DNA from: Candidatus Caldarchaeum sp.
GTDB taxonomy: Archaea; Thermoproteota; Nitrososphaeria_A; Caldarchaeales; Caldarchaeaceae
Assembly: GCA_038844785.1 (NCBI GenBank)
Contig: JAWBRA010000003.1
Coordinates: 5,363-69,362, forward strand
DNA length: 64,000 nt
Direction: 5' to 3'
Shown here: positions 246 to 52,569 of the stretch, one piece after another
Numbering within the stretch: the stretch's first letter is position 1
How the letters are laid out: each line of letters opens with the position of its first letter
The notes under the pieces: generated by a model
What the model was told of the DNA's origin: nothing
The model's database searches: none
The model's input: only the letters and a program-made list of their open reading frames with translations
Made by a program: the position numbers and the translations under genes

Positions 246-806
246 ATGGCCTCTTTCGTCAGGCTGGCAGCTGGGGCGTTAGTAAGCCTCGCCATAATAC
301 TGCTGCTATCTACCGTTGAGCTTTCCTTCCCCCAACCCCTTCAGGCTGTGGTTATCTCGTTGGTCTTGACGGCGGTGGCTTCAGGTTTTGTAGCAGGCTC
401 GGCAACCACGGCCGCCGCCGGAACTTTCATCGGCGGCTTTGCAGCACTTGTTCTCGCGATACTCTGGAACGTAACGCTCTGGTCGCCTTCTCCTGTTCCA
501 TCCGACATGCCCATCATTAGAACACTCCTACTGGGTGGAGCAGCTGTCCTAGCGGCGGGTGTCGGCTTTGTCAGGGGAAGCATACTCCGCAAAACCCCCG
601 TCCCCACTGAACCGCGGAAAGAACAGTCTCAAGCCGTGCAACCTCAGGCTTCAAGCCCGGCCACGTCCCCACTTATCCCCGAATCCAAGCCTACCCCCGT
701 TGTGTTGGAGGTTGAGAATAGAATATGCAAGTTCTGCAGCAGCGTTATACCTGCTGAGTCTGTGTACTGCCCCATGTGTGGGGCTAAGCTGGTTGAGGAA
801 GAGTGA
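246..806 (+). CDS. multi-pass membrane protein with C-terminal CxxC...CxxC zinc ribbon
   Basis: Hydrophobic N-terminal two-thirds, a Pro/Ser/Thr-rich linker, and a C-terminal CKFC...CPMCG motif. Its stop overlaps the start of the next gene. Confidence 0.45.
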   Translation: MASFVRLAAGALVSLAIILLLSTVELSFPQPLQAVVISLVLTAVASGFVAGSATTAAAGTFIGGFAALVLAILWNVTLWSPSPVPSDMPIIRTLLLGGAAVLAAGVGFVRGSILRKTPVPTEPRKEQSQAVQPQASSPATSPLIPESKPTPVVLEVENRICKFCSSVIPAESVYCPMCGAKLVEEE

Positions 807-3664
807 ATTGGATGTTCTCAGAAGAGACGCTTTCCGTCCTAAACCTGCTGGTTAAGCCTTTAAAAGATGCGGTGGTGGAGAAGTTTGGAGAGCTGACTCA
901 GCCGCAGCTGAAAAGCATTCCTAGAATACTGGCGGGAGAAAACCTTCTGCTGATGGCTCCCACCGGCACGGGGAAGACGGAAGCGGCTTTGATACCTTTG
1001 CTGAACAAAATTATTTCACAGCCTAGCTTTGAAGGGGTTAAGATTCTTTACATCACCCCTTTGAGGGCGTTAAACCGCGATCTGCTCGAAAGGATAGAAT
1101 GGTGGGCTGGAAGGTTTGACATGACCGTAGCTGTTAGACACGGTGATACTGCTCAGAGGGAGCGTAGAACGCAGACACTCATCCCGCCGACCATCTTGAT
1201 AACAACGCCTGAGACGCTTCAAATACTTTTGACTGCTAGGTTGTTCCGCCAGCATCTCCGCAGGGTTGATGCTGTTGTAGTGGATGAGGTCCATGAGCTT
1301 GCTGGAGATAAGCGTGGCAGCCAGCTCTCCGTGGCTTTGGAAAGGCTGGCAGAGATTACAGGAAGAGATTTCCAGCGGATTGGCTTGTCGGCTACGGTTG
1401 GAAGCCCTGAGAAAGTGGCAGCCTTTCTCGCAGGTGTTGGAAGAAGCTGTAGCGTGGTAAGAGTACCCGTGGTAAGAAACCTGCATGTCGCCGTCAAATA
1501 TCCAGAGCCAGGCCCGGAAGACTTCGACCTCGCCGAAAAACTATCAATATACCCAGACGTGGCGGCTAGGATGAACTTGATAAAGTCTCTCGTAGAATCA
1601 CATGAATCAACTCTTGTCTTCACGAACACAAGACCCCTTGCCGAGATTCTCACCAACAGGTTTAGGGCTTGGGATGAAGCAGCTCCGATAGGGATTCATC
1701 ACGGAAGCCTTTCGAAAGCAACACGCGTTGGGGCTGAGCAGGCGCTGAAGATGGGAGGGCTTGCGGGAGTTGTATGCACTTCGTCGCTCGAAATGGGTAT
1801 AGACGTGGGAAGAATAGAGCTTTGCATACAGTACAACTCTCCAAGAGAGGTAACCAGGCTCGTGCAGAGAGTGGGCCGCAGCGGCCACTCAATCCACGGC
1901 ACAGCTAAGGGGGTCATAATCGTCACCGATTCCGACGATGCTTTGGAAAGCGTCGTCATAGCCAGACGTGCTTTGAAAGACCTCATAGAAGATGTCGAAA
2001 TCTTCGAAAACAGTTATGACGTTCTCGCACACCAGCTGGCTGGGCTTGTAATCGAGAAGAAAGAGATAGGGTTGGATAAGGCGTTAAACATCTTTAGACG
2101 ATCTTATTGTTTTAGAAAGCTCACGATGGAGGAACTTCTGAAAGCCGCACAGCATCTGGAGAAGCTTGGAGCCGTGATGAGAACCAGCGACAACGTCGTG
2201 ACACAGGGGCCGAAAACATCCATCCTCTACGACTATTACTTCAACAACCTCTCGATGATACCTGAGGAGAAACAGTATCTAGTGGTTCTTGAATCGACGG
2301 GCGAGCCTATAGGCATACTTGACGAAGAGTTTGTGGCTGAGCATGGAGAGCCGGGGACTCGTTTTATCTTGATGGGGAGGGCTTGGGAGATAATTCAAAC
2401 AGCCGGCGAAAGAATTTATGTTTCCGCTTTGGATAGTCTCGAAGGCTCAGTCCCCTCTTGGGTAGGCGACGAGATACCCGTTCCCTTCGAAATAGCTGAG
2501 GAAGTGGGAAAAATACGTAGGCTGTATGCCGAAGCCGTTGCCAGAGGAAGTTCAGACGATGTTTTACAATCCTTGGCGGAACATTACATGACCGACAGGT
2601 CTTTGCTGGAAAAATCCCTACGGGAGGTCAAGATTCATATCGATAAAGGTCTCCCCGTGCCCTCGGATAAGACTGTCGTTTTAGAGGAGACGCCTGAGTA
2701 CATCGTTTTACACATATGCGGCGGGCTGAAGCCGAACAGGACCATAGCCCGTGTGCTGGCTTACGTTCTCTCGTCAAAGATAGGTGCTGTAGTGACTGTG
2801 CAGCAAGACCCTTATCGGATAGTTTTCAAAGGTCGTGAGCTCAGCCTCGAGCTTGTGGCAGAAGAGCTTAGGAACCTAGCTCGAGATAATCAATGGCTGA
2901 AGCTTGTGGAGAAGGCTGTAGAGTCTTCGAGCCTGTTTAGGAGAAGGCTTGTCCACGTGGCGCGTAAAATGGGCGTTTTGAGCAAGGAGGCTAGCATACT
3001 GGACGTAAGCGCGACAAAACTAGCTGAAATGCTGCGTGACACCGTTGTCTACGAAGAGGCTTTAAAACACTGTCTAGCCGCCGATTTCGACCATGAAACG
3101 TCTTTCAAGCTGATTAACAAGATTTCAACAGGCGAGACCTCTCTCATCCCGGTAAGGGTTGAGGAACTTTCTCCGCTGGCCAGGTTGACGGTCAGCAGGT
3201 ACGCCAGCGACGTAGACGTGATTGTTTCTGAAAGGTTGCAGAGGCTTGTGGTCAACGCTGTAAGGGGGAGGCTTAACAACGAGCTTGTAACCCTAGTGTG
3301 CACATCATGCTGGCAGTGGTATGCACGGGTTGCTGTGAAAGAGCTGGATACGAAGCCTGTCTGCGGTGCTTGCGGGTCTTCTTCGCTCGGGGTTTTGAAG
3401 CCCGAGCCTGAAGAGGTACTGAACCTGCTAGCACGCCGTGGGAAACCGTCGAACAGTAAAGAGCGGCAGCTTAGAAAACAGGCTCTGAAGACCGCCCCCC
3501 TAGTAGCGAAGTATGGGAAGGCCGCTGTATTCACATTGGCGAGCCATTATCTCGACGTGGAGGACGCTGCCAAGATCCTTGAGAATGAGTCAAGCCTGGG
3601 AGTGAGGCTTGTAGAGCTTATCGTGGAGGCTGAGAAAAAGAGGCTTCAGGAGCTGTTTAAGTAG
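803..3664 (+). CDS. lhr: Lhr-type large ATP-dependent DEAD/DEAH-box helicase
   Basis: Walker A MAPTGTGKTEAA, a YITPLRALNRD motif, a DEVH box, helicase C motifs (HHGSLS, QRVGRSGH), and a C-terminal zinc ribbon CTSC...CGAC. At 953 aa it matches archaeal Lhr in size. Confidence 0.8.
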   Translation: MNWMFSEETLSVLNLLVKPLKDAVVEKFGELTQPQLKSIPRILAGENLLLMAPTGTGKTEAALIPLLNKIISQPSFEGVKILYITPLRALNRDLLERIEWWAGRFDMTVAVRHGDTAQRERRTQTLIPPTILITTPETLQILLTARLFRQHLRRVDAVVVDEVHELAGDKRGSQLSVALERLAEITGRDFQRIGLSATVGSPEKVAAFLAGVGRSCSVVRVPVVRNLHVAVKYPEPGPEDFDLAEKLSIYPDVAARMNLIKSLVESHESTLVFTNTRPLAEILTNRFRAWDEAAPIGIHHGSLSKATRVGAEQALKMGGLAGVVCTSSLEMGIDVGRIELCIQYNSPREVTRLVQRVGRSGHSIHGTAKGVIIVTDSDDALESVVIARRALKDLIEDVEIFENSYDVLAHQLAGLVIEKKEIGLDKALNIFRRSYCFRKLTMEELLKAAQHLEKLGAVMRTSDNVVTQGPKTSILYDYYFNNLSMIPEEKQYLVVLESTGEPIGILDEEFVAEHGEPGTRFILMGRAWEIIQTAGERIYVSALDSLEGSVPSWVGDEIPVPFEIAEEVGKIRRLYAEAVARGSSDDVLQSLAEHYMTDRSLLEKSLREVKIHIDKGLPVPSDKTVVLEETPEYIVLHICGGLKPNRTIARVLAYVLSSKIGAVVTVQQDPYRIVFKGRELSLELVAEELRNLARDNQWLKLVEKAVESSSLFRRRLVHVARKMGVLSKEASILDVSATKLAEMLRDTVVYEEALKHCLAADFDHETSFKLINKISTGETSLIPVRVEELSPLARLTVSRYASDVDVIVSERLQRLVVNAVRGRLNNELVTLVCTSCWQWYARVAVKELDTKPVCGACGSSSLGVLKPEPEEVLNLLARRGKPSNSKERQLRKQALKTAPLVAKYGKAAVFTLASHYLDVEDAAKILENESSLGVRLVELIVEAEKKRLQELFK

Positions 3665-4262
3665 TTTTCTCCTGCTCGCTTTCGGCAACGCTTGAAAGGT
3701 TTGAGACAGCCTTTATCAACTCTTTCTGGTCGACCTCTGCAACAGCCCTCCATCCAACGGAGAGAACTCCGTCGCCCGCGTCGACCAAGTATCCTCTTCG
3801 GCTAAACCTTTCCAAAGCCGCTTCAACACGCCATCTAGGAAGCTTAGACTCAAGCATTTCAAGCAATTCTTGCTTGGGTGCTTTCCCACCTCTTGAGTAC
3901 AGCAAAGCCAGCGCCGCCGAAAGAACGGCCAGGTCATCTATCCTCCAACCGGCAGCCACAATGTCGGAGAGGCTCAAAGGATCCGTCAAAGTTATGAAAT
4001 ACCTGGCTCTGTCGTAGTCGTCTTCGACCGGTTGTCTGTCCCCCGGTGTTTCAAAAAGGATTTTCACACGCAAGCCTAAGGGTTCAAGCCTGTGGTTCAG
4101 GCTCTCTATGACTTTGAGATAGTTTTTCCCCAGCCTTCTTCTAAGCTCGTAACCCCTAACGCCGGGGAGCCTGTGGCTGGTGAAAAGCAGCATAGCCATG
4201 GCCGTTGAGAGCTTTTTTCTCGCTGCAGACTGTTCAGGGGATGGTTCAGACAAGCACAGCAC
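3657..4262 (-). CDS. ScpB-like protein (tandem winged-helix), third gene of the SMC-like operon
   Basis: 201 aa with two wHTH-like halves (YELRRRLGKNYLKVIESLNHRLEPLGLRV... and ...KQELLEMLESKLPRWRVEAALERFSRRGYLV). Its start overlaps the upstream kleisin-like gene by 17 nt. Confidence 0.5.
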   Translation of the reverse strand: MLCLSEPSPEQSAARKKLSTAMAMLLFTSHRLPGVRGYELRRRLGKNYLKVIESLNHRLEPLGLRVKILFETPGDRQPVEDDYDRARYFITLTDPLSLSDIVAAGWRIDDLAVLSAALALLYSRGGKAPKQELLEMLESKLPRWRVEAALERFSRRGYLVDAGDGVLSVGWRAVAEVDQKELIKAVSNLSSVAESEQEKTT

Positions 4263-5010
4263 CCTCCTTCAAAACAATAACCATGGAGGCGACGTTTCTC
4301 CTCTCAGCCTTAGACTCAAAGGGTTTAAGCGTCACCTTTCCGGTGATAGGGTTTCTCACAACTTCAGCCAAGCCTTCGCTGACTATGAAAGCTGTCAGAT
4401 AAGCCCTTTCAACCGTTTTCTCCACCCCTTCCCTGGATATGAAGGAAGCATAGTCGACTTCACCGTTCTCGTCTCTTGAAGCAAGCATTTCACTATGCAG
4501 CTTCTTCAGCTCAAGCTCTATCTCCTCTCTCTGGCTGAACGTGTTCAAAGCCTGGCGGAAATCAACTTCAGGGCCTATCTCTGTGGTTGCGGAAGACTTT
4601 AGATTGCGGGTCGGCAGGCTTAGAAAATATTCCAACCCCATCGCCACCATGCCGCGAGTAAGCTGCTCAGCGGACACGATGGGTCTCCAGCTTGATACAA
4701 GAGCTTGGGCCAGCGATTTTTTATCAGCTGACAAAATCTTCAACACTATCAACTGCGTGTCAACAAGCAGGGAAGAAGCTCTGTCTTTAAGCCATTTATG
4801 TTGCAGGGCAATGACTAAGGCAACCCTGTAGAGCGTTTCCGCGTCCAACGTCAGAATCTCTGTATCGCTGGTCCTCTCCACGATCGACCTCAGCTTGGCC
4901 AAAATAGCCTTCACATCAACGCTGTAGGGGTCGGCTCCGGTCTTTGCTATCGTCTCGCAGAGTGAAATCAGCCTTTCCAGCTCATCCTTAGCCAGCTTGA
5001 CGCTCGTCAC
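4246..5010 (-). CDS. kleisin (ScpA)-like protein
   Basis: 254 aa with an N-terminal helical region and a C-terminal winged-helix-like segment (VDYASFISREG..AYLTAFIVSEGLAEVV) resembling the ScpA C-terminus. It is translationally coupled, by overlaps, between the SMC-like and ScpB-like genes. Confidence 0.45.
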   Translation of the reverse strand: MTSVKLAKDELERLISLCETIAKTGADPYSVDVKAILAKLRSIVERTSDTEILTLDAETLYRVALVIALQHKWLKDRASSLLVDTQLIVLKILSADKKSLAQALVSSWRPIVSAEQLTRGMVAMGLEYFLSLPTRNLKSSATTEIGPEVDFRQALNTFSQREEIELELKKLHSEMLASRDENGEVDYASFISREGVEKTVERAYLTAFIVSEGLAEVVRNPITGKVTLKPFESKAERRNVASMVIVLKEGAVLV

Positions 5011-6742
5011 TAGAAAACACCTCCGCCGCAGCCGGTATCGAGACGACGGACCTTCCCTTCACGTTCTGTACTAGGATGGTATTCATGTCCTGTCTGTATG
5101 GAACCCTGCCAGGTGTTATGATGATGTATTGTGTGTCACCGTCCTGTTTGGCTGTTGACGTGAGTATGTTGATTATCCGCTCGCGGTTTAGCGGGTCGAG
5201 GTGAACGTCGAATTCGTCGACCGCCCTGAAGGGTGATTTTATGTATTTTTGAAGCGCTAGGAGAAAAGCCATCGTCGCAACTATCCTTTCGCCGCCGCTC
5301 TGTGTGTGAGCGTTCAGCAAAGTTGGTTCAACACCTCTGAACCCCACGTAGATCTCCACCGATGCTTTGTCTATGTCGTTCAAGTTCCTCAGCTCTAGTT
5401 TCCCTGAACCTCCTACAACGGACAGAATTTTTTGATACTCTGGTTCGACGGCGGCTATGAGGCTGCGTAGGAACTCACGCCACTTCTGCTTCCTGTACTC
5501 GGCTTCTTCGAGGGCTTTACGTGCATTTTCGCTCAGCTGGGAAGCTTTAAGCTCCGCCTCCCTGTACTTGGCTTCAGCAAGCATAAACATCTCCTCCGCC
5601 TGAGGTGTTGGATTGCCCATGGACGCAAGCTGCAGCCCCACAGCCTTCAGCTCTTCAGAGACTTCCAACGGCTTTCTCCCAGTATCTATTCGCGGCCCCT
5701 TCTCGGAAGCTTCCGAAACCCTTCTGGCCAGCTCCTTCTCAGCCGCAGTCAACTCATATCTTAGATCTCTCAACTCGGATTCTCTGATCTCTTTTCTCTC
5801 GAGGCTCCTGCCAAGCCTTTCAGCAGTTTTTACCAACTCGTTTAATTTTTTCGCCAGTTCTTCTTCGGAGGCTCTTTCGCTAAATTGCTGCAGAAGCCTT
5901 TGGGAGAGAATGTTAACATCCTCCGAAATTCTTCCAGCCTCTTTCTCAAGCTTTTCAACCTCTTCGTTCAGCATGTTTATCTTGTCTTGGATTCTATCCC
6001 TAGATTTCTCAGCCTCTTTGACCAACGACCAGAGATACTCTGACTCGAGCAGCTTTTTACGTTCCTCAAGCTGTTTAATGATGGTAAGCTTCTGGTATTC
6101 CTCCCGCCAGTAATCTACTGCTGCCCGTGCGTCCTCCAAAGTCTTCCTTATCACAGCTTCTTCGGCCAATAGAGACGAGAGCTTGGTCTCTGCCTGCTTT
6201 ATCTTCTCCCTCAGACCGGCAGCGCCGACAGCCTCCTCGATCATAACAAGCTTCTCCCTACTGTCTCTGCTAACAAACTGTTCAATCATGTTTTGATGCA
6301 TTATTATTAGCATGTTGTCTGGGTTTATCCCAATCTTTGAGAGAAGGTTCTCGACCTCGGCTTTGGTCTTAAACTTGTTGTTTACATAGTGCCAGTATTC
6401 GCCGTTCTTTTTCAGAAACCTAGCGATTGTAACGGAGTCGGAGGAGATTGTGGGTATGGGGCGTTTTCCGTCAACAGGTCTGTTGTCGAAGACCACTGCA
6501 ACTCTGGCTGCGTCCATGCCTCGGCGTATCAGGTCGCTCAACCTCTGACCCCTCTCAGTGTAGGTCTGCCCCAAAGCCACTGAAATCGCCAGCAGAATCG
6601 ATGACTTACCTGCTCCGTTTGGGCCAACGACCACGTTCAACCCAGGTTGAAGAGAGATTCGACTATATTCATGGGACATGAAGTTCTCTAAGATAACCTC
6701 CTTGACGTAAGGCCTTGCCCTCCCGCCTTCACCCGCTGACAA
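4988..6742 (-). CDS. half-size SMC-like ATPase (N-terminal Walker A head, short coiled coils, C-terminal signature/Walker B head)
   Basis: N-terminus VVGPNGAGKSSILLAI (Walker A). C-terminus SGGERIVATMAFLLAL (ABC signature) and RAVDEFDVHLD (Walker B/D-loop). A long charged heptad-like middle. Only 584 aa, with no CxxC zinc hook and no classical hinge. Confidence 0.7.
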   Translation of the reverse strand: MSAGEGGRARPYVKEVILENFMSHEYSRISLQPGLNVVVGPNGAGKSSILLAISVALGQTYTERGQRLSDLIRRGMDAARVAVVFDNRPVDGKRPIPTISSDSVTIARFLKKNGEYWHYVNNKFKTKAEVENLLSKIGINPDNMLIIMHQNMIEQFVSRDSREKLVMIEEAVGAAGLREKIKQAETKLSSLLAEEAVIRKTLEDARAAVDYWREEYQKLTIIKQLEERKKLLESEYLWSLVKEAEKSRDRIQDKINMLNEEVEKLEKEAGRISEDVNILSQRLLQQFSERASEEELAKKLNELVKTAERLGRSLERKEIRESELRDLRYELTAAEKELARRVSEASEKGPRIDTGRKPLEVSEELKAVGLQLASMGNPTPQAEEMFMLAEAKYREAELKASQLSENARKALEEAEYRKQKWREFLRSLIAAVEPEYQKILSVVGGSGKLELRNLNDIDKASVEIYVGFRGVEPTLLNAHTQSGGERIVATMAFLLALQKYIKSPFRAVDEFDVHLDPLNRERIINILTSTAKQDGDTQYIIITPGRVPYRQDMNTILVQNVKGRSVVSIPAAAEVFSSDERQAG

Positions 6743-6879
6743 CCTTACCCTGCAGGCCTCTACTGCCCGATTATATAAATTCCCCCGCTTGGAAAGAAGA
6801 ATTTGGGCTTACATCACACATACGTGAGGATATCCGATGGTATGTTGTCAATAAATATGCGGAGGCCGTTTTCCGCTAA

Positions 6880-6888
6880 GATATATAG
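6880..6888 (+). promoter_or_regulatory. TATA box (atatatag) about 26 nt upstream of the cdvC ATG; leaderless-type promoter
   Basis: AT-rich octamer at the expected archaeal distance. The divergent SMC-like operon has its own tttatataa element near 6758-6768. Confidence 0.45.
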
Positions 6889-6913
6889 ATTCGCTGGGAC
6901 GCCGGCCATAGGC

Positions 6914-8032
6914 ATGTCGCAGGAGCTGGAAAGAATAGCTGCAACGAGGGCAAAAGAAGCCGTCAACTTTGATAGGATGGGTCAGAAACACAAGGCGATT
7001 AAATCTTACCGTGATGCGATAGATATTTTATGGAGGCTTTACCACCTAGCCCCCGACACATCGATAAGAAGGATTTACGCCGACAAGATCAAGGAGTACC
7101 AATCTAGGATTGATGAGTTAACGAACGAGACTACGCCTGCCGAGCCTGTGCAGCTGGATGCAAAGCCTGTTCGGACAAACCTGATCACGATGGAGAAACC
7201 TAAAGTAAGCTGGGAGGACATCGTGAACATAGAGGAGGCGAAGAAAGCCATCAGAGAAAGCATAATCTTTCCCACAAAAAGGCCTGACCTTTTTCCTCTC
7301 GGGTGGCCGAGGGGAATTCTTCTCTTCGGCCCACCTGGATGCGGCAAAACTTTGTTAGCAGCAGCTGTGGCTTCTGAGCTCGAAGCCAGCTTTTACACGG
7401 TCGATGCGGCGAGCATAATGTCCAAATGGTTGGGCGAGTCAGAGAAGAATGTCTCAAAAATCTTTAATCAATGCAGGCAGGAGGCAAGGTCTGGGAGACC
7501 CGTTGTAATTTTCATAGATGAAGTGGACTCGCTGACAACCGAGAGATTTATGGAGGTCGGTGGTGAGGCGAGGGTGAGAAACCAACTAATAAAGGAGATG
7601 GACAGCGTAATTGACAAGGGCCGGAGAGATTTTCTCTACGTGATAGCGGCTACAAACAAGCCCTGGCATCTCGACGAACCCTTCATAAGAAGGTTTCAAA
7701 AAAGAATTTATGTTTCTCTGCCAGACCTCAACGCGCGGGTGAAGCTGTTTGAAATGTATACGAAGGGGTTGAAGCTCGACGCTGGGGTGGAGCTGACACA
7801 GCTGGCGAAGATAACTGACGGATACTCGGCTGCAGACATCCACGACATATGTGTTGAAGCCCAGCTAAAGGTTGTGAGCGAGTTTTTCTCAACCACTGAT
7901 GGAGAAAAGGGTGAGCCGAGGCCAGTAACCATGGATGATTTTATGGACATCATCAAAAAACGAAAACACTCTATAATGCTGCAAAACCTGAAAAAACTCC
8001 TCGACTGGAACTCAAAATACGGAACTAGCTAG
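6914..8032 (+). CDS. cdvC: CdvC / Vps4 AAA+ ATPase with N-terminal MIT domain
   Basis: MIT-like N-terminus (ATRAKEAVNFDRMGQKHKAIKSYRDAIDILWRL), AAA Walker A GILLFGPPGCGKTLLA, Walker B VVIFIDEVD, and a Vps4-type C-terminus. Start taken at the internal ATG at 6914, giving 372 aa. Confidence 0.8.
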   Translation: MSQELERIAATRAKEAVNFDRMGQKHKAIKSYRDAIDILWRLYHLAPDTSIRRIYADKIKEYQSRIDELTNETTPAEPVQLDAKPVRTNLITMEKPKVSWEDIVNIEEAKKAIRESIIFPTKRPDLFPLGWPRGILLFGPPGCGKTLLAAAVASELEASFYTVDAASIMSKWLGESEKNVSKIFNQCRQEARSGRPVVIFIDEVDSLTTERFMEVGGEARVRNQLIKEMDSVIDKGRRDFLYVIAATNKPWHLDEPFIRRFQKRIYVSLPDLNARVKLFEMYTKGLKLDAGVELTQLAKITDGYSAADIHDICVEAQLKVVSEFFSTTDGEKGEPRPVTMDDFMDIIKKRKHSIMLQNLKKLLDWNSKYGTS

Positions 8033-8896: not shown

Positions 8897-9310
8897 TCAT
8901 GAACAGCGTGAGATGAAAATGTCTTCACGTTCATACTCGGCGACCCATGTCTTGGTCGAGCTTGGCTTAAGCCTTAAACCTATAAGCCTAAAACCATCCG
9001 GGATGTCTTCAGCCGCCAGTTTCAAAGCCTCCTGTATAGAGTCGGCGTTTTTCTCCTTGAGAATTCTCTTCTCGCCTTTTTCTCTTTCAACACGGTAGCA
9101 GCTGAGGCAGAGCGTACGGCCACGGAGGACGGTTACGGTCATTCTCTTAACAGCGGAACCGCAGCTGTCGCAGGAGACCTGCTGTAGCCCGCAGTTTCTG
9201 CAGACGTTCCCAAACCCTGTTATGTAAAATGATGTATCTTTGCCGGCTATCTCGCGTCCGCAAACCTTGCAGACAACGTTGCCACCAGTCTTCTGGAGGT
9301 GTCCCAGCAT
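8897..9310 (-). CDS. small multi-CxxC zinc-ribbon protein
   Basis: 137 aa with at least five CxxC pairs (CKVCG, CRNCG, CDSCG, CLSC). Confidence 0.4.
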   Translation of the reverse strand: MLGHLQKTGGNVVCKVCGREIAGKDTSFYITGFGNVCRNCGLQQVSCDSCGSAVKRMTVTVLRGRTLCLSCYRVEREKGEKRILKEKNADSIQEALKLAAEDIPDGFRLIGLRLKPSSTKTWVAEYEREDIFISRCS

Positions 9311-45939: not shown

Positions 45940-46209
45940 CTATACGCTCTTTAACATTTTATAGATTTTCTCTGATAGCGCGGCCATGCTCAGGACATCG
46001 TCCAACGTGGCTAGCAGCGAAGCCAGCATTCTTCTGCATTCGACGGTGACGACTACCGTGTTGCCATCCAGCGAAGTTTCCACCTCGAGGCCCTTCGGCA
46101 AAGGCTTGTCGTCCGGCTTTATTGAGCTGTACACGGCCTGAGCCGTTTCCGCGTCTTCAAAAACCATTCTAACCACTGACTTGGCTGGCGGTGCTGGCAA
46201 GCTGTTCAC
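45940..46209 (-). CDS. pcc1: KEOPS subunit Pcc1-like
   Basis: 89 aa, VRMVFEDAETAQAVYSSIKPD...GNTVVVTVECRRMLASLLATLDDVLSMAAL matches the Pcc1/CTAG fold pattern. Lies near kae1/bud32. Confidence 0.55.
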   Translation of the reverse strand: MNSLPAPPAKSVVRMVFEDAETAQAVYSSIKPDDKPLPKGLEVETSLDGNTVVVTVECRRMLASLLATLDDVLSMAALSEKIYKMLKSV

Positions 46210-47620
46210 CCAGGGCCCTGTCGAGGTCTGCGAGAAACCTTATTATCCTGTCGGAGGGGATTTCAGCTCCAGCCGCTACGTTATGCCCTCCACCCTTGCC
46301 TCCGTAGGATGCGGCTAGGCGGGAGAGAAGCGTTCCCAGGTTTACCCCTCTGTCAACCAACTGTTTGGGTGCACGTGAAGAGATTTTGACCATCTTCCCA
46401 GCTGTCGCAAAAGCCACCAAAGCCTTGTCAGACGGCAGAAGACCTGAAGAAGAAATTATGGAGGCTATTGAGCTCACCTGCTTCTCATCTATCACGTCGC
46501 CGCCTTTCAGAACTATTATATGGTTTAACTCTTCGATGACGCCTGGCCGCGCTACGTAATCCATTGCCCGTGCAAGGCTGGCGCGGTACTCCTCCAACAC
46601 CCTCTGAGCTTCTTCTAAGACCTCGGCCCTAGCCCCCATCGCGACGACTATTCCCAGCCACGGTTTCCCAGTTTTACCGCAGGCGTTCAACAATGTTGCG
46701 AATTCTCTGGCATCCCTTAGGTACGTCCATAGCTCTTCCTTAACAAGGTCATAGGCTACTCCCACGAGCTCCTCCGCTATGCTTGATGGCAGGCCGTTGG
46801 AAACGAGGTATTCTATAAGCCCGTTGTAAAGTTTTTTCTTCTCTTCCTCCGTAAGGTCGGATAAGGTGCGCCATTGCTCCCCCTCTTTCAACGGCAGCCC
46901 CAAGCTTGATAAAAAGCTGTAGCAAGCATCTTCGCGACCGCTCAACCCAGGGATGTAAGGGCTTGTTGTTGAAGCAAGCGCCGCATGCAATGGTCTGAAG
47001 GTTCGGCCGTACAGGATGATGTCTTCACACGCCTCGAGAACGCCTGCTCTAACTCCATCTTCCACTATCAAGCTGTTCAACCCGTGAAGCCTTCTGCGGT
47101 TGTCCTTATCCTGCAAGTCTCCCAAAGCACCCACCACGGCCACAGCTGAGTAACGTATGTTGGACGGGTTCAATGCTTTGCATACAAGATATGCCACGCC
47201 TGCAGCGCTTATCTCTCTGGCTCCGTCAAACCCATAGTGATGGGGGTTGACATGCACCCATCCGCTCGGCGTTTCAACATCCCTAGGCTCGTGATGGTCG
47301 AGTATCACAACCTGCTTGCCAGCAAGAAGTTTCGAAAGATCTTCGAGATAGCCGCTGCCGATGTCGGTGAATATCAAGGCCTCCGATTCGACGTATCCTT
47401 CGTTAAGGAGCTGGATGAAGTCGTCTATCCTGTTGAGAGACCTGACTCTGTACCGAGCGTCCTCTTCTCTTAAAGCGCCCGCCACTATCCCTGCGGAAGA
47501 AAGGGCGTCAGCGTCGTTGTGCGTGAAAATGTCTATGAAAAAGCCTTCTCTAACCCAGTTTCTTATCTTAGCGGAGGCGGCCTCAACCGATTTGAAGAAC
47601 CGAGCCGTATCGCCTGTCAA
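46169..47620 (-). CDS. DHH/DHHA1 phosphoesterase, RecJ-like (GAN/Cdc45-type)
   Basis: Motif I HNDADALSSAGIV, the DHH motif ILDHHEP, and DHHA1 GGKGGGHNVAAGAEI. Confidence 0.65.
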   Translation of the reverse strand: MTGDTARFFKSVEAASAKIRNWVREGFFIDIFTHNDADALSSAGIVAGALREEDARYRVRSLNRIDDFIQLLNEGYVESEALIFTDIGSGYLEDLSKLLAGKQVVILDHHEPRDVETPSGWVHVNPHHYGFDGAREISAAGVAYLVCKALNPSNIRYSAVAVVGALGDLQDKDNRRRLHGLNSLIVEDGVRAGVLEACEDIILYGRTFRPLHAALASTTSPYIPGLSGREDACYSFLSSLGLPLKEGEQWRTLSDLTEEEKKKLYNGLIEYLVSNGLPSSIAEELVGVAYDLVKEELWTYLRDAREFATLLNACGKTGKPWLGIVVAMGARAEVLEEAQRVLEEYRASLARAMDYVARPGVIEELNHIIVLKGGDVIDEKQVSSIASIISSSGLLPSDKALVAFATAGKMVKISSRAPKQLVDRGVNLGTLLSRLAASYGGKGGGHNVAAGAEIPSDRIIRFLADLDRALGEQLASTASQVSG

Positions 47621-50316: not shown

Positions 50317-52569
50317 ATGAGTTTCCGCGAACCCATCGTCGTGGTGCTTGGCCATGTCGACCATGGGAAATGCGTAAGCCCGGAGACGATGATAAATGTG
50401 GAAAACATGGGATGGTTGAGAGCCGAAGAGGTGTTTAAAAAGTTTGCGGTGGGAGGCAAAGTTCTTAATTTGGCTGACGGCGTGGCCGTCAGACCAGCTA
50501 AACCACCTGTGCTTACAACGTTATCGAGAAAGCTTGAGCCAAGACGTGCATGCGCATCACTGATCTGGCGTAGAACCCCGCCTCCGGAAATGGTGAGAGT
50601 TCATTTCACCAACTCGGAGTCTGTGGAAACCACGCCCGAGCATCCTTTCCTAGTGGAAAAACGAGGAGTGGTGCGGTATGAAAGGGCTGACCGGCTTAAA
50701 GTCGGCGACAACGTTCTCGGCATGTCAAACAAGTCTCTAACGCTTAATAGAATTGAGCAGGTGGAAACTTTCAAGCCGAATTACTCCTACGTGTATGATT
50801 TCACCGTGCCGGGAACCCATCATTTCCTCGCAGAGAACATCTTTCTCCACAACACATCGCTTCTGGATAAGATGCGTGGCACGGTGGTGGCTGCGAGAGA
50901 AGCGGGAGGCATTACACAGCACATAGGAGCCACTTTATTTCCGGTGAAAGCTATAGAAGAGACCTGCCGACTCCTGCTGGGAGAGCTGAACGTCAGGCTG
51001 GAAATCCCGGGAATCCTATTCATAGACACACCTGGACATGCTGCTTTCTCAAACCTAAGAAAAAGGGGTGGGTCGATAGCCGACATGGCTATCCTTGTCG
51101 TCGACGTCATGAAAGGTGTTCAGGAACAGACGAAGGAAAGCATCCAGCTTCTCAGGTCTAGGAAAACGCCTTTTGTTGTTGCGCTCAACAAGATTGACAT
51201 GATACCGGGATGGAGGCCAACACCCTCAGCCCCATTCCAGAAAACATACGCAAACCAGCAGAGGGGGGTGGCGGATGACCTCGAAAATAGAGTCTACAAC
51301 CTCATGGGCGACCTTAGCTTTCTAGGCTTCAAGTCCGACCTCTACACGCGGATAAAATCCTTCACCGACACCGTAGCCATAGTTCCCGTCAGCGCTAAAA
51401 CAGGCGAGGGGATACCGGATTTGCTGCTCCTCATTCTCGGGCTGGCCCAGCAGTTTATGAAACAGCGTCTGAGACGTGTGTCCGGGCGTGGAGAAGGCGT
51501 TATACTTGAGCTGGTTGAGGAGGAGGGGCTTGGCGCTACAGCCAACGTAATACTTCACGCGGGAGCCCTCAAGGTTGGAGACAGAATAGCTTACCTGAGC
51601 AGGAATGGCCCAGCTGTTACAAGGGTCAAAACACTTCTAATGCCAAAGCCCTTGGAAGAGATAAGAGACCCGCGCGAAAGGTTGAGGAGTGTGGAGAGCG
51701 TACAGGCCGCTGCAGGCGTGAAGCTTGTAGCAGAAGGGTTGGAGGAGGCGGTCGCAGGCTCGCCTGTGCTGGTTGTCGTTAATGAGTCAGAGGACCTGCG
51801 GAGGATTGCTGAAGAAGCTCAAGAGTTCATGATTTCTACTGACAAGACGGGAATAGTTATCAAAGCAGACACGCTGGGCACGCTGGAGGCGGCGGTCACA
51901 TACCTGAGGGAGAAGGGTGTTCTCATACGTGTGGCTGACATCGGAGATGTATCAAAAAAGGACGTTGTCGAAGCGCATGTGGTTGGACAGAAGGACGAGC
52001 TTCTGGGCGTCATTTTGGCCTACAACGTCAAGGTTGACCAAGAACTGGAAAAGGAAGCCAACAGCAGAGGTGTTCGAGTCTTTAAAGGGGATGTGTTGTT
52101 CAGAATTGTGGAAGAATACGAGAGATGGGTTGAGGAAACCGTACGTCAAAAACAGTTGGCGGAATTCGAGACTTTGACAAAGCCGGGTAAGCTGAAGGTG
52201 CTGAAAGACTATATCTTCAGAAGAAGCGAGCCCGCGATAGTTGGCGTAGAAATTCTTGCAGGCGAGATAAAGCCTGGCATCCGTCTAGTTAACACAAACG
52301 GGAAAATCGTCGGCACAGTATCCCAGCTGCAGGACAGGGGGCAGCCTCTGCCTTCAGCCGGTAAAGGAGCTAAAATAGCGATATCGATAAAGGAGGGGGT
52401 AGTAGGACGAAACATACACGGCGACGAGGTTCTATACGTCTATGTTCCAGAACGGGATGCGAGACAGCTTTCAGCAAACTACGCAAGCTTACTGGATGAA
52501 GCCAGTTTGAAGACGCTGGAGGAATTTACGGAGATAATGAGGAGACAAAACCCCCTATGGGCACGGTAG
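50317..52569 (+). CDS. infB: translation initiation factor aIF5B (IF2 homologue), containing a mini-intein in the P-loop
   Basis: Extein: VLGHVDHGK|...|TSLLDKMRGTVVAAREAGGITQHIGAT, followed by the G domain, domains II-IV and the C-terminus. Confidence 0.9.
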   Translation: MSFREPIVVVLGHVDHGKCVSPETMINVENMGWLRAEEVFKKFAVGGKVLNLADGVAVRPAKPPVLTTLSRKLEPRRACASLIWRRTPPPEMVRVHFTNSESVETTPEHPFLVEKRGVVRYERADRLKVGDNVLGMSNKSLTLNRIEQVETFKPNYSYVYDFTVPGTHHFLAENIFLHNTSLLDKMRGTVVAAREAGGITQHIGATLFPVKAIEETCRLLLGELNVRLEIPGILFIDTPGHAAFSNLRKRGGSIADMAILVVDVMKGVQEQTKESIQLLRSRKTPFVVALNKIDMIPGWRPTPSAPFQKTYANQQRGVADDLENRVYNLMGDLSFLGFKSDLYTRIKSFTDTVAIVPVSAKTGEGIPDLLLLILGLAQQFMKQRLRRVSGRGEGVILELVEEEGLGATANVILHAGALKVGDRIAYLSRNGPAVTRVKTLLMPKPLEEIRDPRERLRSVESVQAAAGVKLVAEGLEEAVAGSPVLVVVNESEDLRRIAEEAQEFMISTDKTGIVIKADTLGTLEAAVTYLREKGVLIRVADIGDVSKKDVVEAHVVGQKDELLGVILAYNVKVDQELEKEANSRGVRVFKGDVLFRIVEEYERWVEETVRQKQLAEFETLTKPGKLKVLKDYIFRRSEPAIVGVEILAGEIKPGIRLVNTNGKIVGTVSQLQDRGQPLPSAGKGAKIAISIKEGVVGRNIHGDEVLYVYVPERDARQLSANYASLLDEASLKTLEEFTEIMRRQNPLWAR
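50371..50853 (+). mobile_element. 161-aa mini-intein inserted in the aIF5B GxxxxGK|T P-loop
   Basis: Begins Cys (CVSPETM...), has block B TTPEHPF, ends ...VYDFTVPGTHHFLAENIFLHN, and is followed by +1 Thr. There is no room for a homing-endonuclease domain. Confidence 0.85.

Follow-up and report, generated by a model that had tools for sequence, protein, structure and literature searches.

A three-gene operon of Candidatus Caldarchaeum as a likely archaeal counterpart of the SMC5/6 core with a short, hingeless ATPase

Three overlapping genes of Candidatus Caldarchaeum sp. likely constitute an archaeal counterpart of the core of the eukaryotic SMC5/6 complex, built on an ATPase composed of head, neck, and joint and working as an ATP-gated DNA clamp. 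The genes lie in a 64,000-nt stretch of contig JAWBRA010000003.1 (assembly GCA_038844785.1; positions 5,363 to 69,362 of the forward strand); this whole stretch is called the window below, and positions are counted from its first letter.

RESULTS

The 584-amino-acid (aa) product of the ATPase gene (positions 4988 to 6742, minus strand, TTG start) has a head and a short arm without a hinge. This gene overlaps by 23 nt the gene for a putative Nse4-like kleisin of 254 aa (4246 to 5010, minus strand, GTG start), which in turn overlaps by 17 nt the gene for an Nse1/Nse3-like kite, called at 201 aa (3657 to 4262, minus strand, GTG start). An earlier note on this DNA, made from its letters, had described three minus-strand genes of these sizes with these overlaps, and the open reading frame (ORF) calls bear it out. 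The true start of the kite gene is probably TTG 4253, since a 94%-identical homologue (P0159) is 198 aa long and a GGAGG motif lies 9 nt upstream; the kite would then have 198 aa and the kleisin/kite overlap would shrink to 8 nt. The three proteins appear to be made from a single transcript driven by a TATA box ahead of the ATPase gene, and to be translationally coupled by the overlaps. The candidate archaeal TATA box, TTTATATA (6772 to 6779, minus strand), was read from the letters, with a putative function; it is located ~30 nt upstream of the ATPase TTG and is preceded by a purine-rich stretch.

The order SMC-kleisin-kite is kept in all 11 genomic contexts collected, which come from Caldarchaeales, Thermofilales, and Bathyarchaeota-like contigs. 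Where genes were called (10 contexts), the trio genes overlap or are separated by gaps of ≤7 nt; at one locus, L001, the ORF list leaves 472 nt between the SMC ORF and the kleisin ORF. Location on one strand, overlapping or abutting genes, and an order conserved across lineages are the features on which we regard the trio as a putative operon. The proteins are currently annotated as "AAA family ATPase" and "hypothetical protein."

The 584-aa protein has the layout of the SMC superfamily, with an N-terminal Walker A motif, a C-terminal signature, Walker B, and D-loop, and an antiparallel coiled coil between them, and it matches Pfam SMC_N (PF02463) over residues 12 to 546 (E value of 3.1e-37; 128.6 bits, with a cut-off of 40). 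Walker A (G40-PNGAGKS47, 6602 to 6625, minus strand) is invariant in 47 homologues, and the ABC signature (S482-GGER486, 5285 to 5299, minus strand) and the Walker B/D-loop segment (D509-EFDVHLD516, 5195 to 5218, minus strand) are invariant in homologue alignment A3; sequence reading places the Q-loop at Q150. Sequence reading and the homologue alignment thus confirm the Walker A, signature, and D-loop motifs reported earlier. The switch loop, T543-P544-G545 (5108 to 5116, minus strand), aligns to "LITPK" of Smc5 and is of the SMC5/6 type. This "TP" motif occurs in 54 of 55 short members of the family, in all three hook forms, in all three long basal forms, and in 19 of 19 SMC5/6 sequences, whereas none of 10 canonical SMCs has it, their switch reading TH, SL, TL, or SH instead.

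A search of the PDB with the single ATPase sequence placed SMC5 (1.7e-33) and SMC6 on top. With the family profile, the best matches were yeast and human SMC5/SMC6 (175 bits for SMC5 and 163 for SMC6), while Pyrococcus Smc reached 120 bits and Rad50 44. A heads-only tree joined the family with SMC5/SMC6 against canonical SMC in 100 of 100 bootstraps; this tree is neighbor joining rather than maximum likelihood, was built on 292 head columns, and used references verified as SMC5 (P0410) and SMC6 (P0375). Judged by these matches and this tree, the ATPase is a member of the SMC5/6 branch and not of the canonical Smc branch. A Bathyarchaeota entry of the family (ArcSMC_RLI24128.1) in the accessible part of a published alignment has the same head sequences, REVILENFMSYEY ... 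DEFEVHMD, and the label given to the family there is "ArcSMC ... SMC5/6-related" (PMC9389158). By this sequence correspondence, the 584-aa protein is the archaeal "SMC5/6-related" SMC of Yoshinaga and Inagaki (2021; PMC8665677) and Yoshinaga et al. (2022; PMC9389158). The earlier note had placed the trio in no named archaeal family; this named family exists, while the separation from Rad50 and coalescin stood.

In the AlphaFold2 model of the ATPase (pLDDT 82.8), residues 175 to 441 (5420 to 6220, minus strand; pLDDT mostly 82 to 93) are predicted to form an antiparallel coiled-coil arm. An ascending helix of 114 residues (175 to 288; ~17 nm) leads to a 4-residue turn (289 to 292; 5867 to 5878, minus strand) at the place where a hinge or hook would be, and the chain returns in helices 293 to 348, 358 to 375, and 382 to 441. 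The model contains no hinge domain, and Pfam SMC_hinge gave no match in the protein. The translation has no cysteine at all and therefore no CxxC hook. The earlier description of the ATPase as short, without a hinge, and without a zinc hook was right on each point, whereas its arm is about one third, not roughly half, of that of a canonical SMC: the span from Walker A to the signature is 442 residues here, versus 1057 in canonical SMC and about 910 in SMC5/6.

The descending helix is broken at residues 349 to 357 and 376 to 381, within a putative joint-like segment (346 to 382; 5597 to 5707, minus strand) whose G349, R356, and G376 are invariant in the homologue alignment. The best PDB fold match of the model is 5xei, an engineered "head + coiled coil + joint" construct of Pyrococcus yayanosii Smc. 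Conservation in the ATPase is lowest at the tip (majority fraction of 0.22 to 0.24), which is also an indel site of variable length (33 to 162 residues) in relatives. Long relatives carry an extra ~450 aa inserted exactly at the tip, and in some relatives from Bathyarchaeota, about 1,000 aa long, a hook-like CxxC motif occupies this place.

The best 120 homologues (down to 51% identity) are 433 to 636 aa long, or 574 to 636 aa when four shorter entries (433 to 561 aa, two of them labelled partial) are set aside, and ~50 further clusters at 50% identity span 541 to 690 aa. Because the homologues are equally short, the ATPase is not a truncation artefact; in this sample of sequences, a short length of ~550 to 690 aa is conserved across TACK archaea. 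In most of these archaea the ATPase thus appears, from alignments and the model, to keep head, neck, and joint only, turning back after about 114 residues and lacking any hinge or hook by which two arms could be linked at their far ends. The short arms could associate laterally or tip to tip and so enclose a lumen, an arrangement that a monomer model cannot show.

The 254-aa protein by itself gave no Pfam or NCBIfam match. The profile of its family (A1) matched only yeast Nse4 (E value of 0.0011) and human NSMCE4/EID3 (E value of 0.024) in the PDB, the Nse4 alignment covering profile positions 137 to 221. Pfam Nse4_C (PF08743) was matched by 8 of 31 homologues (best E value of 1.7e-6), mostly below curated cut-offs; three Bathyarchaeota-like orthologues scored 16 to 22 bits, the cut-off being 26. 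In the family alignment, conservation is strong over the N-terminal 115 residues, as would fit a kleisin. ScpA (PF02616) was absent from the matches of the 31 homologues (E value of ≤0.1) and of the window proteins (E value of ≤1). On the strength of these family matches, the protein is probably an Nse4-like kleisin.

The 201-aa protein likewise had no Pfam or NCBIfam match. Its AlphaFold2 model (pLDDT 79.9) comprises two winged-helix units and a C-terminal helix. Foldseek ranks 1 to 9 are all Nse3, Nse1, or MAGE chains (E values of 5e-7 to 7e-4), led by Nse3 (7dg2_C, 5.4e-7), the MAGE-G1/NSE1 complex, Nse1 (7dg2_A), and MAGEA4; the other kites JetB, ScpB, and MukE follow at ranks 16, 20, and 23. 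Among 45 homologues, SMC_Nse1 was matched by 18 and MAGE by 14, mostly below curated cut-offs, and ScpB (PF04079) was absent from the matches of these homologues (E value of ≤0.1) and of the window proteins (E value of ≤1). As modeled, the protein is a tandem-winged-helix kite with a fold closest to Nse3/Nse1/MAGE. Profiles, the fold model, and the gene overlaps together uphold the earlier picture of a tightly coupled operon for an SMC-type ATPase, a probable kleisin, and a tandem-winged-helix partner. Its description of the partners as ScpA- and ScpB-like holds for their kleisin and kite nature and fails for the resemblance to ScpA and ScpB in particular, given the Pfam results and the matches to Nse4 and Nse3/Nse1/MAGE instead.

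On the far side of the kite gene lies a gene for an Lhr-type helicase of 953 aa (803 to 3664, plus strand; Pfam DEAD, DEAD_assoc, and WH_Lhr). It is convergent with the operon, and its 3′ end overlaps the kite gene by 8 nt, in agreement with the convergent overlap claimed before. An orthologous Lhr gene (44 to 66% identity) stands convergently beside the kite gene in 7 of the 11 contexts, a Thermofilales metagenome-assembled genome included; neither the Bathyarchaeota-like loci nor L083/84 have it. Lhr is thus a conserved neighbor and a possible functional partner of the trio. The link between them is one of convergence, not of co-transcription.

Upstream, the operon is flanked by a divergent gene for CdvC (NCBIfam NF041006, E value of 1.5e-147), which is adjoined by CdvB, as had been noted for this window. 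CdvC probably starts at ATG 6914, since it is only from residue 40 of the called ORF onward that the profile matches. The adjacency of cdvC and cdvB to the trio was found in this window alone and in none of the 10 other contexts, and the proposal of a chromosome-segregation/division locus was not supported. The neighborhood conserved in Caldarchaeales comprises genes for NAD kinase, a PIN protein, isocitrate/isopropylmalate dehydrogenase, and peptidase M54 on one side and for Lhr, a Zn-ribbon protein, and acyl-CoA dehydrogenase on the other. Identities of the trio proteins co-vary with those of their neighbors, as expected for vertical descent. No Mre11-like gene was present among the large ORFs of the window or in the 10 other contexts, and no nuclease or effector gene of the JetD or LmuA type was adjacent in any of the 11.

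DISCUSSION

The three-part architecture of SMC, kleisin, and kite is also that of Smc-ScpAB, and the trio could be read as a shortened canonical condensin that organizes and segregates the chromosome and is functionally tied to cdvBC. The best NCBIfam match of the ATPase is in fact TIGR02169 (SMC_prok_A), at 196 bits, ScpB appears among the fold matches of the kite, and in the window cdvC is the operon's divergent neighbor. That score, however, is far under the 729-bit cut-off of TIGR02169, the profile search ranks SMC5/6 above prokaryotic Smc, and the tree separates the two with full bootstrap support. None of the 31 kleisin and 45 kite homologues matches ScpA or ScpB, while Nse4_C, SMC_Nse1, and MAGE do occur, and the link to cdvBC is confined to one context of 11. 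Moreover, Caldiarchaeum subterraneum, which has FtsZ and lacks CdvA, is reported to carry an operon-like SMC/ScpB/ScpA set (PMC3082918), which may be a separate canonical complex. We consider the condensin reading improbable; at the family level, profile scores, tree, and partner matches largely refute it.

We give little credence to an antiplasmid or antiviral defense module akin to Wadjet (JetABC) or Lamassu (LmuB/LmuC), in which the ATPase would sense foreign DNA and an Lhr/BrxHI-like helicase would take part. The PADLOC LmuB model matches the ATPase end to end (89.7 bits over residues 12 to 544), LmuB-type ATPases are also about 600 aa long (profile length of 611), and the mad3 model reaches 110 bits. 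JetB and MukE, the latter of MukBEF-type systems, are kites found among the fold matches of the Caldarchaeum kite, Lhr matches BrxHI at 1e-102 (PADLOC), and eukaryotic SMC5/6 is described, in the part of PMC9458440 available, as a restriction factor against viral replication. Yet the LmuB and mad3 matches reflect generic head similarity and are weaker than those to SMC5/6. The trio differs from Lamassu, Wadjet, and MukBEF-type systems in having no adjacent effector nuclease, no PADLOC match for its kleisin or kite, and a conserved housekeeping neighborhood whose identities speak for vertical descent. A Rad50/SbcC-like or coalescin/ASRP-like protein with unrelated partners is very improbable. 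The ATPase is hingeless and of ASRP size (NCBIfam profile length of 593), NCBIfam Rad50 models match it at up to 88 bits, and some close Bathyarchaeota relatives have CxxC at the arm tip; however, the ASRP model (NF045487) gives 47.3 bits against a cut-off of 300, the Rad50 models stay far below their cut-offs, and Rad50 heads score about a quarter as high as SMC5. The lack of any cysteine (a zinc hook is present in most ASRPs), the absence of a nearby Mre11 gene, and the nature of the partners argue likewise, kleisin and ScpA being unmentioned in the searchable ASRP text of PMC9389158. Profile scores and tree refute this identity for the 584-aa protein.

The counterpart of the SMC5/6 core is thus the reading that we prefer. 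Compared with the eukaryotic Smc5/6-Nse1/Nse3/Nse4 core (7TVE, 7QCD, and 8I13), the trio shares the best head sequence match, the "TP" switch, a putative Nse4-type C-terminal winged helix in the kleisin, and an Nse1/Nse3/MAGE-type tandem-winged-helix kite. It differs in having one SMC gene and one kite gene, each product presumably a homodimer, a kite without a RING, no Nse2, Nse5, or Nse6 genes in the operon, no hinge, and arms about one third as long. With Smc-ScpAB it has in common the SMC-kleisin-kite composition and the P. yayanosii Smc construct as best fold match; it is set apart by the tree branch of its SMC and by partners that do not match ScpA/ScpB models, and its ATPase lacks the arms of about 340 residues and the hinge dimerization domain of canonical Smc. 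[quoted passage not shown]

Operons of an SMC5/6-related SMC, an Nse4-like kleisin, and an Nse1/3-like kite are described for TACK and Asgard archaea in the accessible text of van Hooff et al. (bioRxiv 10.1101/2024.01.07.573240). Family, operon content, and TACK distribution there and in PMC8665677 and PMC9389158 agree with ours, and the searchable text of the three papers deals with phylogeny only. That text makes no mention of a hingeless hairpin arm, a length of 550 to 690 aa, CxxC-tipped variants, or an Lhr neighbor; an arm that ends just past the joint without a hinge is, as far as the searchable papers go, newly described here.

We take the steps of the proposed mechanism, the stoichiometry, the kleisin contacts with neck and cap, and the clamping of DNA from solved structures of Smc5/6-DNA and Smc-ScpAB, by analogy with which the ATPase probably acts as a homodimer. 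Two ATP molecules would be sandwiched between the two heads. The kleisin would contact both ATPases, one at the neck through its N-terminal helical domain (assigned from position and conservation) and the other at the cap through its C-terminal winged helix, while its middle region would carry two kites. DNA would be clamped atop the engaged heads, within the kleisin/kite compartment, and ATP hydrolysis would release or reset the clamp. If, as the monomer model suggests, the arms enclose no lumen, the complex probably serves genome maintenance as an ATP-gated clamp on DNA or as a sensor of it, and not as a long-range loop extruder, and it may act together with the neighboring Lhr helicase.

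More tentatively, and with greater doubt than confidence, we suggest that most TACK archaea possess a natural "mini-SMC5/6": a hingeless complex that holds no DNA between its arms, works purely as an ATP-gated kleisin/kite clamp, and possibly feeds substrates to Lhr. In this view the arm ends in an interchangeable part: most members would have a simple hairpin, some Bathyarchaeota a CxxC hook like that of Rad50, and basal members, like eukaryotic SMC5/6, a globular segment resembling a hinge. If this is true, long arms and a hinge were not needed for the ancestral function of SMC5/6.

SMC5/6 is, to our knowledge, the least understood of the eukaryotic SMC complexes, and its archaeal relatives have, in the literature text accessible to us, been treated only as tree branches. 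In annotation, the three proteins could be given the names SMC5/6-like ATPase, Nse4-like kleisin, and Nse1/3-like kite, and the recurrent Lhr neighbor offers a concrete repair-linked hypothesis. Should the short hingeless form prove to be the one at work in most TACK archaea, it would provide a three-protein, thermostable minimal SMC5/6 core. With such a core, one could test in vitro what head, kleisin, and kite are capable of when long arms and a hinge are missing (DNA clamping, control of the ATPase, and recognition of DNA structure) and which of the eukaryotic complex's activities, for example loop extrusion or topological entrapment, would be later additions.

Organization and conservation of the operon

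Three genes on the minus strand of the window encode an SMC-type ATPase of 584 aa (positions 4988 to 6742), a putative kleisin of 254 aa (4246 to 5010), and a putative kite, a tandem winged-helix partner of 201 aa as called (3657 to 4262). With starts as called, ORF calls give overlaps of 23 nt between the ATPase and kleisin genes and 17 nt between the kleisin and kite genes, and the kite gene shares 8 nt with the 3′ end of the gene for a 953-aa Lhr-type helicase, which runs convergently to it (803 to 3664, plus strand). These calls bear out the earlier note, which had described a three-gene operon with overlaps of this kind and a convergent overlap with the helicase gene. The kite start is more likely the TTG at 4253, which gives 198 aa and has GGAGG 9 nt upstream, as in a 94%-identical homologue. 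CdvC (NCBIfam E value of 1.5e-147) is encoded divergently, upstream of the trio, with the CdvB gene next after it; its start is more likely the ATG at 6914 (372 aa) than the TTG at 6803 of the longest ORF. The region between the ATPase and CdvC genes (6743 to 6913) reads as carrying two divergent TATA-like boxes, TTTATATA on the minus strand (6779 to 6772), ~30 nt upstream of the ATPase TTG start, and ATATATAG on the plus strand (~6880 to 6887).

The SMC-kleisin-kite order was kept in 11 of 11 independent contexts, and all three proteins were orthologous between contexts, at 27 to 68% identity. The genes overlapped or lay at most 7 nt apart in the 10 contexts with called genes; at L001, a locus represented by an ORF list, 472 nt separated the SMC ORF from the kleisin ORF. 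Gene calls across these genomes show the trio as a tightly coupled, conserved predicted operon.

The ATPase heads are of the SMC5/6 type

The ATPase motifs of the 584-aa protein read as intact: Walker A (G40-PNGAGKS47), Q-loop (Q150), signature (S482-GGER486), and Walker B/D-loop (D509-EFDVHLD516). The protein matched Pfam SMC_N (E value of 3.1e-37), and a single-sequence search of PDB sequences placed SMC5 (1.7e-33) and then SMC6 on top. A 47-sequence family profile widened the gap, scoring 175 bits for SMC5, 163 for SMC6, 120 for Pyrococcus Smc, 99 for SMC3, and 44 for Rad50. Membership in Rad50 or ASRP was ruled out by NCBIfam scores (ASRP reached 47 bits where its cut-off is 300, and the Rad50 models likewise fell far under theirs) and by the absence of any cysteine from the protein.

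An NJ tree was built from a heads-only alignment (90 sequences by 292 columns) that included canonical bacterial and archaeal SMCs from fetched loci. A contig scan with generic Walker A and D-loop patterns found at least 80 loci; 78 of the 80 listed were ordinary SMCs, mostly bacterial, some of which were reused as the canonical outgroup, and among the matches listed only L001 and a further locus, L002, held family members. The tree references P0410 and P0375 were verified as SMC5 (2.9e-191 to human SMC5) and SMC6 (2.9e-124), respectively. The short family (relatives of ~550 to 690 aa), SMC5, and SMC6 formed a group excluding canonical SMC in 100 of 100 bootstraps. A switch-loop TP was present in 54 of 55 short members and in all 19 SMC5/6 sequences; all 10 canonical SMCs had TH, SL, TL, or SH at that position. 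Judged from these comparisons, the heads are of the SMC5/6 type. Yoshinaga et al. 2022 (PMC9389158) include, in a supplementary alignment, a Bathyarchaeota "ArcSMC" entry with the same head sequences, and we therefore equate the ATPase with their "SMC5/6-related" archaeal SMC (PMC8665677, PMC9389158).

The ATPase arm is short and hingeless

A database entry identical to the 584-aa ATPase, labelled "AAA family ATPase," belongs to the MAG of a Candidatus Caldarchaeum sp. (Aigarchaeota/Caldarchaeales). The best 120 homologues, with identity down to 51%, measured 433 to 636 aa overall and 574 to 636 aa save for four shorter ones (433 to 561 aa, two labelled partial). When 1.84 billion cluster representatives were searched exhaustively, ~50 more clusters of 541 to 690 aa emerged at 36 to 46% identity, whose named sources were Thermoprotei, Korarchaeota (Methanodesulfokora), Bathyarchaeota, Thermofilales, and one "Thaumarchaeota" MAG. 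Conservation of length in well over 100 clusters rules out a truncated gene or assembly artefact as the cause of the short protein. The span from Walker A to the signature is 442 residues in the window ATPase and 429 to 562 over the short family; SMC5/6 proteins have ~910 and canonical SMC has 1057.

An AlphaFold2 model (pLDDT 82.8) shows the arm as a short hairpin, in which a predicted ascending helix runs unbroken over residues 175 to 288 (114 residues, ~17 nm) into a 4-residue turn and the descending helix is interrupted at 349 to 357 and 376 to 381. Its best PDB fold match was 5xei, an engineered P. yayanosii Smc construct of head, coiled coil, and joint, followed by Smc5 and Smc6 head regions; the natural protein therefore stops roughly at the cut point of that construct. 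Conservation (majority fraction) was 0.76 to 0.80 in the heads, 0.61 to 0.69 in the neck and joint, 0.45 in the distal arm, and lowest, 0.24, at the tip, which is also a site of indels among relatives. The tip is thus unlikely to hold a conserved dimerisation module. The modelled hairpin, the conserved length, and the lack of cysteines agree with the original description of a short ATPase without hinge or zinc hook.

Longer arms occur among the relatives. Three Bathyarchaeota clusters of 1016 to 1047 aa have arms longer by ~450 residues, with the insertion precisely at the tip and a C-[DE]-[KR]-C-G-S motif (KPQIKCDKCGS) at the midpoint of the lengthened arm (residue 531 in P0304, 542 in P0307, which includes RLI38935.1, and 522 in P0325). 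The motif resembles the Rad50 zinc hook, and these forms were nested among short Bathyarchaeota forms in 100 of 100 bootstraps (NJ). Another relative, P0330 (982 aa), has a Gly/Pro-rich hydrophobic middle segment (residues ~400 to 560) that, from its composition, may be a hinge; Pfam SMC_hinge did not match it. P0330 branches near the base of the family, and the clade of short and hook forms excluding it was recovered in only 56 of 100 bootstraps (NJ).

The partners resemble Nse4 and Nse1/Nse3

Searched alone, the window kleisin and kite had no match in Pfam, NCBIfam, or PDB sequences, and the signal came solely from family profiles and homologues. Only 38 homologues of the kleisin were detectable, 2 of them with Nse4_C. 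A 31-sequence kleisin profile matched only yeast Nse4 (E value of 0.0011) and human NSMCE4/EID3 (0.024) in PDB, and the Nse4 alignment spanned profile positions 137 to 221, including the C-terminal domain. Pfam Nse4_C was matched by 8 of the 31 members, and by three distant Bathyarchaeota-like orthologues under the curated cut-off. Among the 278 homologues of the kite, 18 of 45 matched SMC_Nse1 and 14 of 45 matched MAGE; these partner matches, like those to Nse4_C, were mostly under curated cut-offs.

In the AlphaFold2 model of the kite (pLDDT 79.9), two winged-helix units are followed by a C-terminal helix. Foldseek against PDB ranked Nse3, MAGE-G1, Nse1, and MAGEA4 first (5e-7 to 7e-4), with JetB, ScpB, and MukE at ranks 16, 20, and 23; the kite profile gave no significant PDB sequence match (MAGE/Nse3 chain 7dg2_C at E 0.39), and the assignment is based on the fold search together with the Pfam matches of homologues. 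The predicted partners are an Nse4-like kleisin and, from model and homologues together, an Nse1/Nse3-like kite. The scheme of an SMC with kleisin and kite proposed in the earlier note holds, but not its ScpA/ScpB typing: ScpA and ScpB Pfam models matched none of the kleisin or kite homologues, and Nse4_C, SMC_Nse1, and MAGE were matched instead.

Genomic neighborhood

An orthologous convergent Lhr helicase (44 to 66% identity) adjoins the kite gene in 7 of the 11 contexts: the window, L001 (3951 to 6788), L081 (12104 to 14932), L085 (10137 to 13010), L086/87 (L086, 10614 to 13475, with a NUDIX gene between), L090 (6596 to 9427), and L091 (6614 to 9445). Since L001 is from a Thermofilales MAG, the link spans two archaeal classes. 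Lhr was absent beside the trio in the other four, three Bathyarchaeota-like loci and L083/84. Mobile-element genes (ParB_N/HTH, RHH, and phage-portal protein) lie downstream in L083 (10901 to 15578) and L084 (10900 to 15743), from two Nitrososphaerota MAGs, which suggests an integrated element at the Lhr position. The gene upstream of Lhr in the window (246 to 806, plus strand) encodes 186 aa, with hydrophobic segments toward the N terminus and a zinc ribbon (CxxC...CxxC) at the C terminus; in L081, L085, L086, L090, and L091, Lhr likewise has with it a Zn-ribbon gene of weak similarity to this one.

The proposed segregation/division link to cdv did not survive comparison. The trio had cdvC/cdvB beside it in the window only (1 of 11 contexts), and we reject a functional link because the adjacency is missing from all 10 others. 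For C. subterraneum, Nunoura et al. (PMC3082918) reported FtsZ together with CdvB and CdvC, the absence of CdvA, and an operon-like SMC/ScpB/ScpA set; that set may be the trio described here or a second, canonical complex.

Elsewhere in the window, a 137-aa ORF between cdvB and a SufBD-like gene (8897 to 9310, minus strand) contains several CxxC pairs but matched no Pfam family. A DHH/DHH-CID/DHHA1 protein of 483 aa (46169 to 47620, minus strand) is presumably of the RecJ/GAN (Cdc45-like) kind. An aIF5B/IF-2-type GTPase of 750 aa (50317 to 52569, plus strand) matches Pfam Intein_splicing at residues 139 to 179, before its GTP_EFTU match, and may contain a mini-intein or intein remnant.

Placement in the family and possible role

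Van Hooff et al. (bioRxiv 10.1101/2024.01.07.573240) reported the same operon type for TACK and Asgard archaea. Since both the ATPase family and this type of operon have been described before, the window trio is a further member. A search for short-armed or hingeless archaeal SMC5/6 returned only two studies of SMC evolution and a hinge-less SMC of Actinobacteria that is unrelated; the portions of the archaeal SMC5/6-related literature open to searching held no mention of a conserved hingeless "head-neck-joint" architecture, CxxC-tipped variants, or a recurrent Lhr neighbor.

The trio could also be read as a Lamassu/Wadjet-like defence system, and the LmuB model does match the ATPase (89.7 bits), but this support is generic. 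Neither kleisin nor kite matched a defence model, no effector gene is present, and the conserved neighborhood is of a housekeeping kind; with partners unmatched and the effector gene missing, we reject membership in either system. By analogy with solved Smc5/6-DNA and Smc-ScpAB structures, two heads of the SMC5/6-type complex would dimerise with ATP sandwiched between them, the kleisin would link one ATPase, at its neck, to the other, at its cap, a kite dimer would sit on the kleisin, and the heads would carry clamped DNA within the kleisin compartment. Arm tips that are not joined would leave no closed arm lumen, which makes a role as a clamp or sensor in genome maintenance likelier than one in long-range loop extrusion. 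The Lhr neighbor, a link of convergent synteny only, points the same way.
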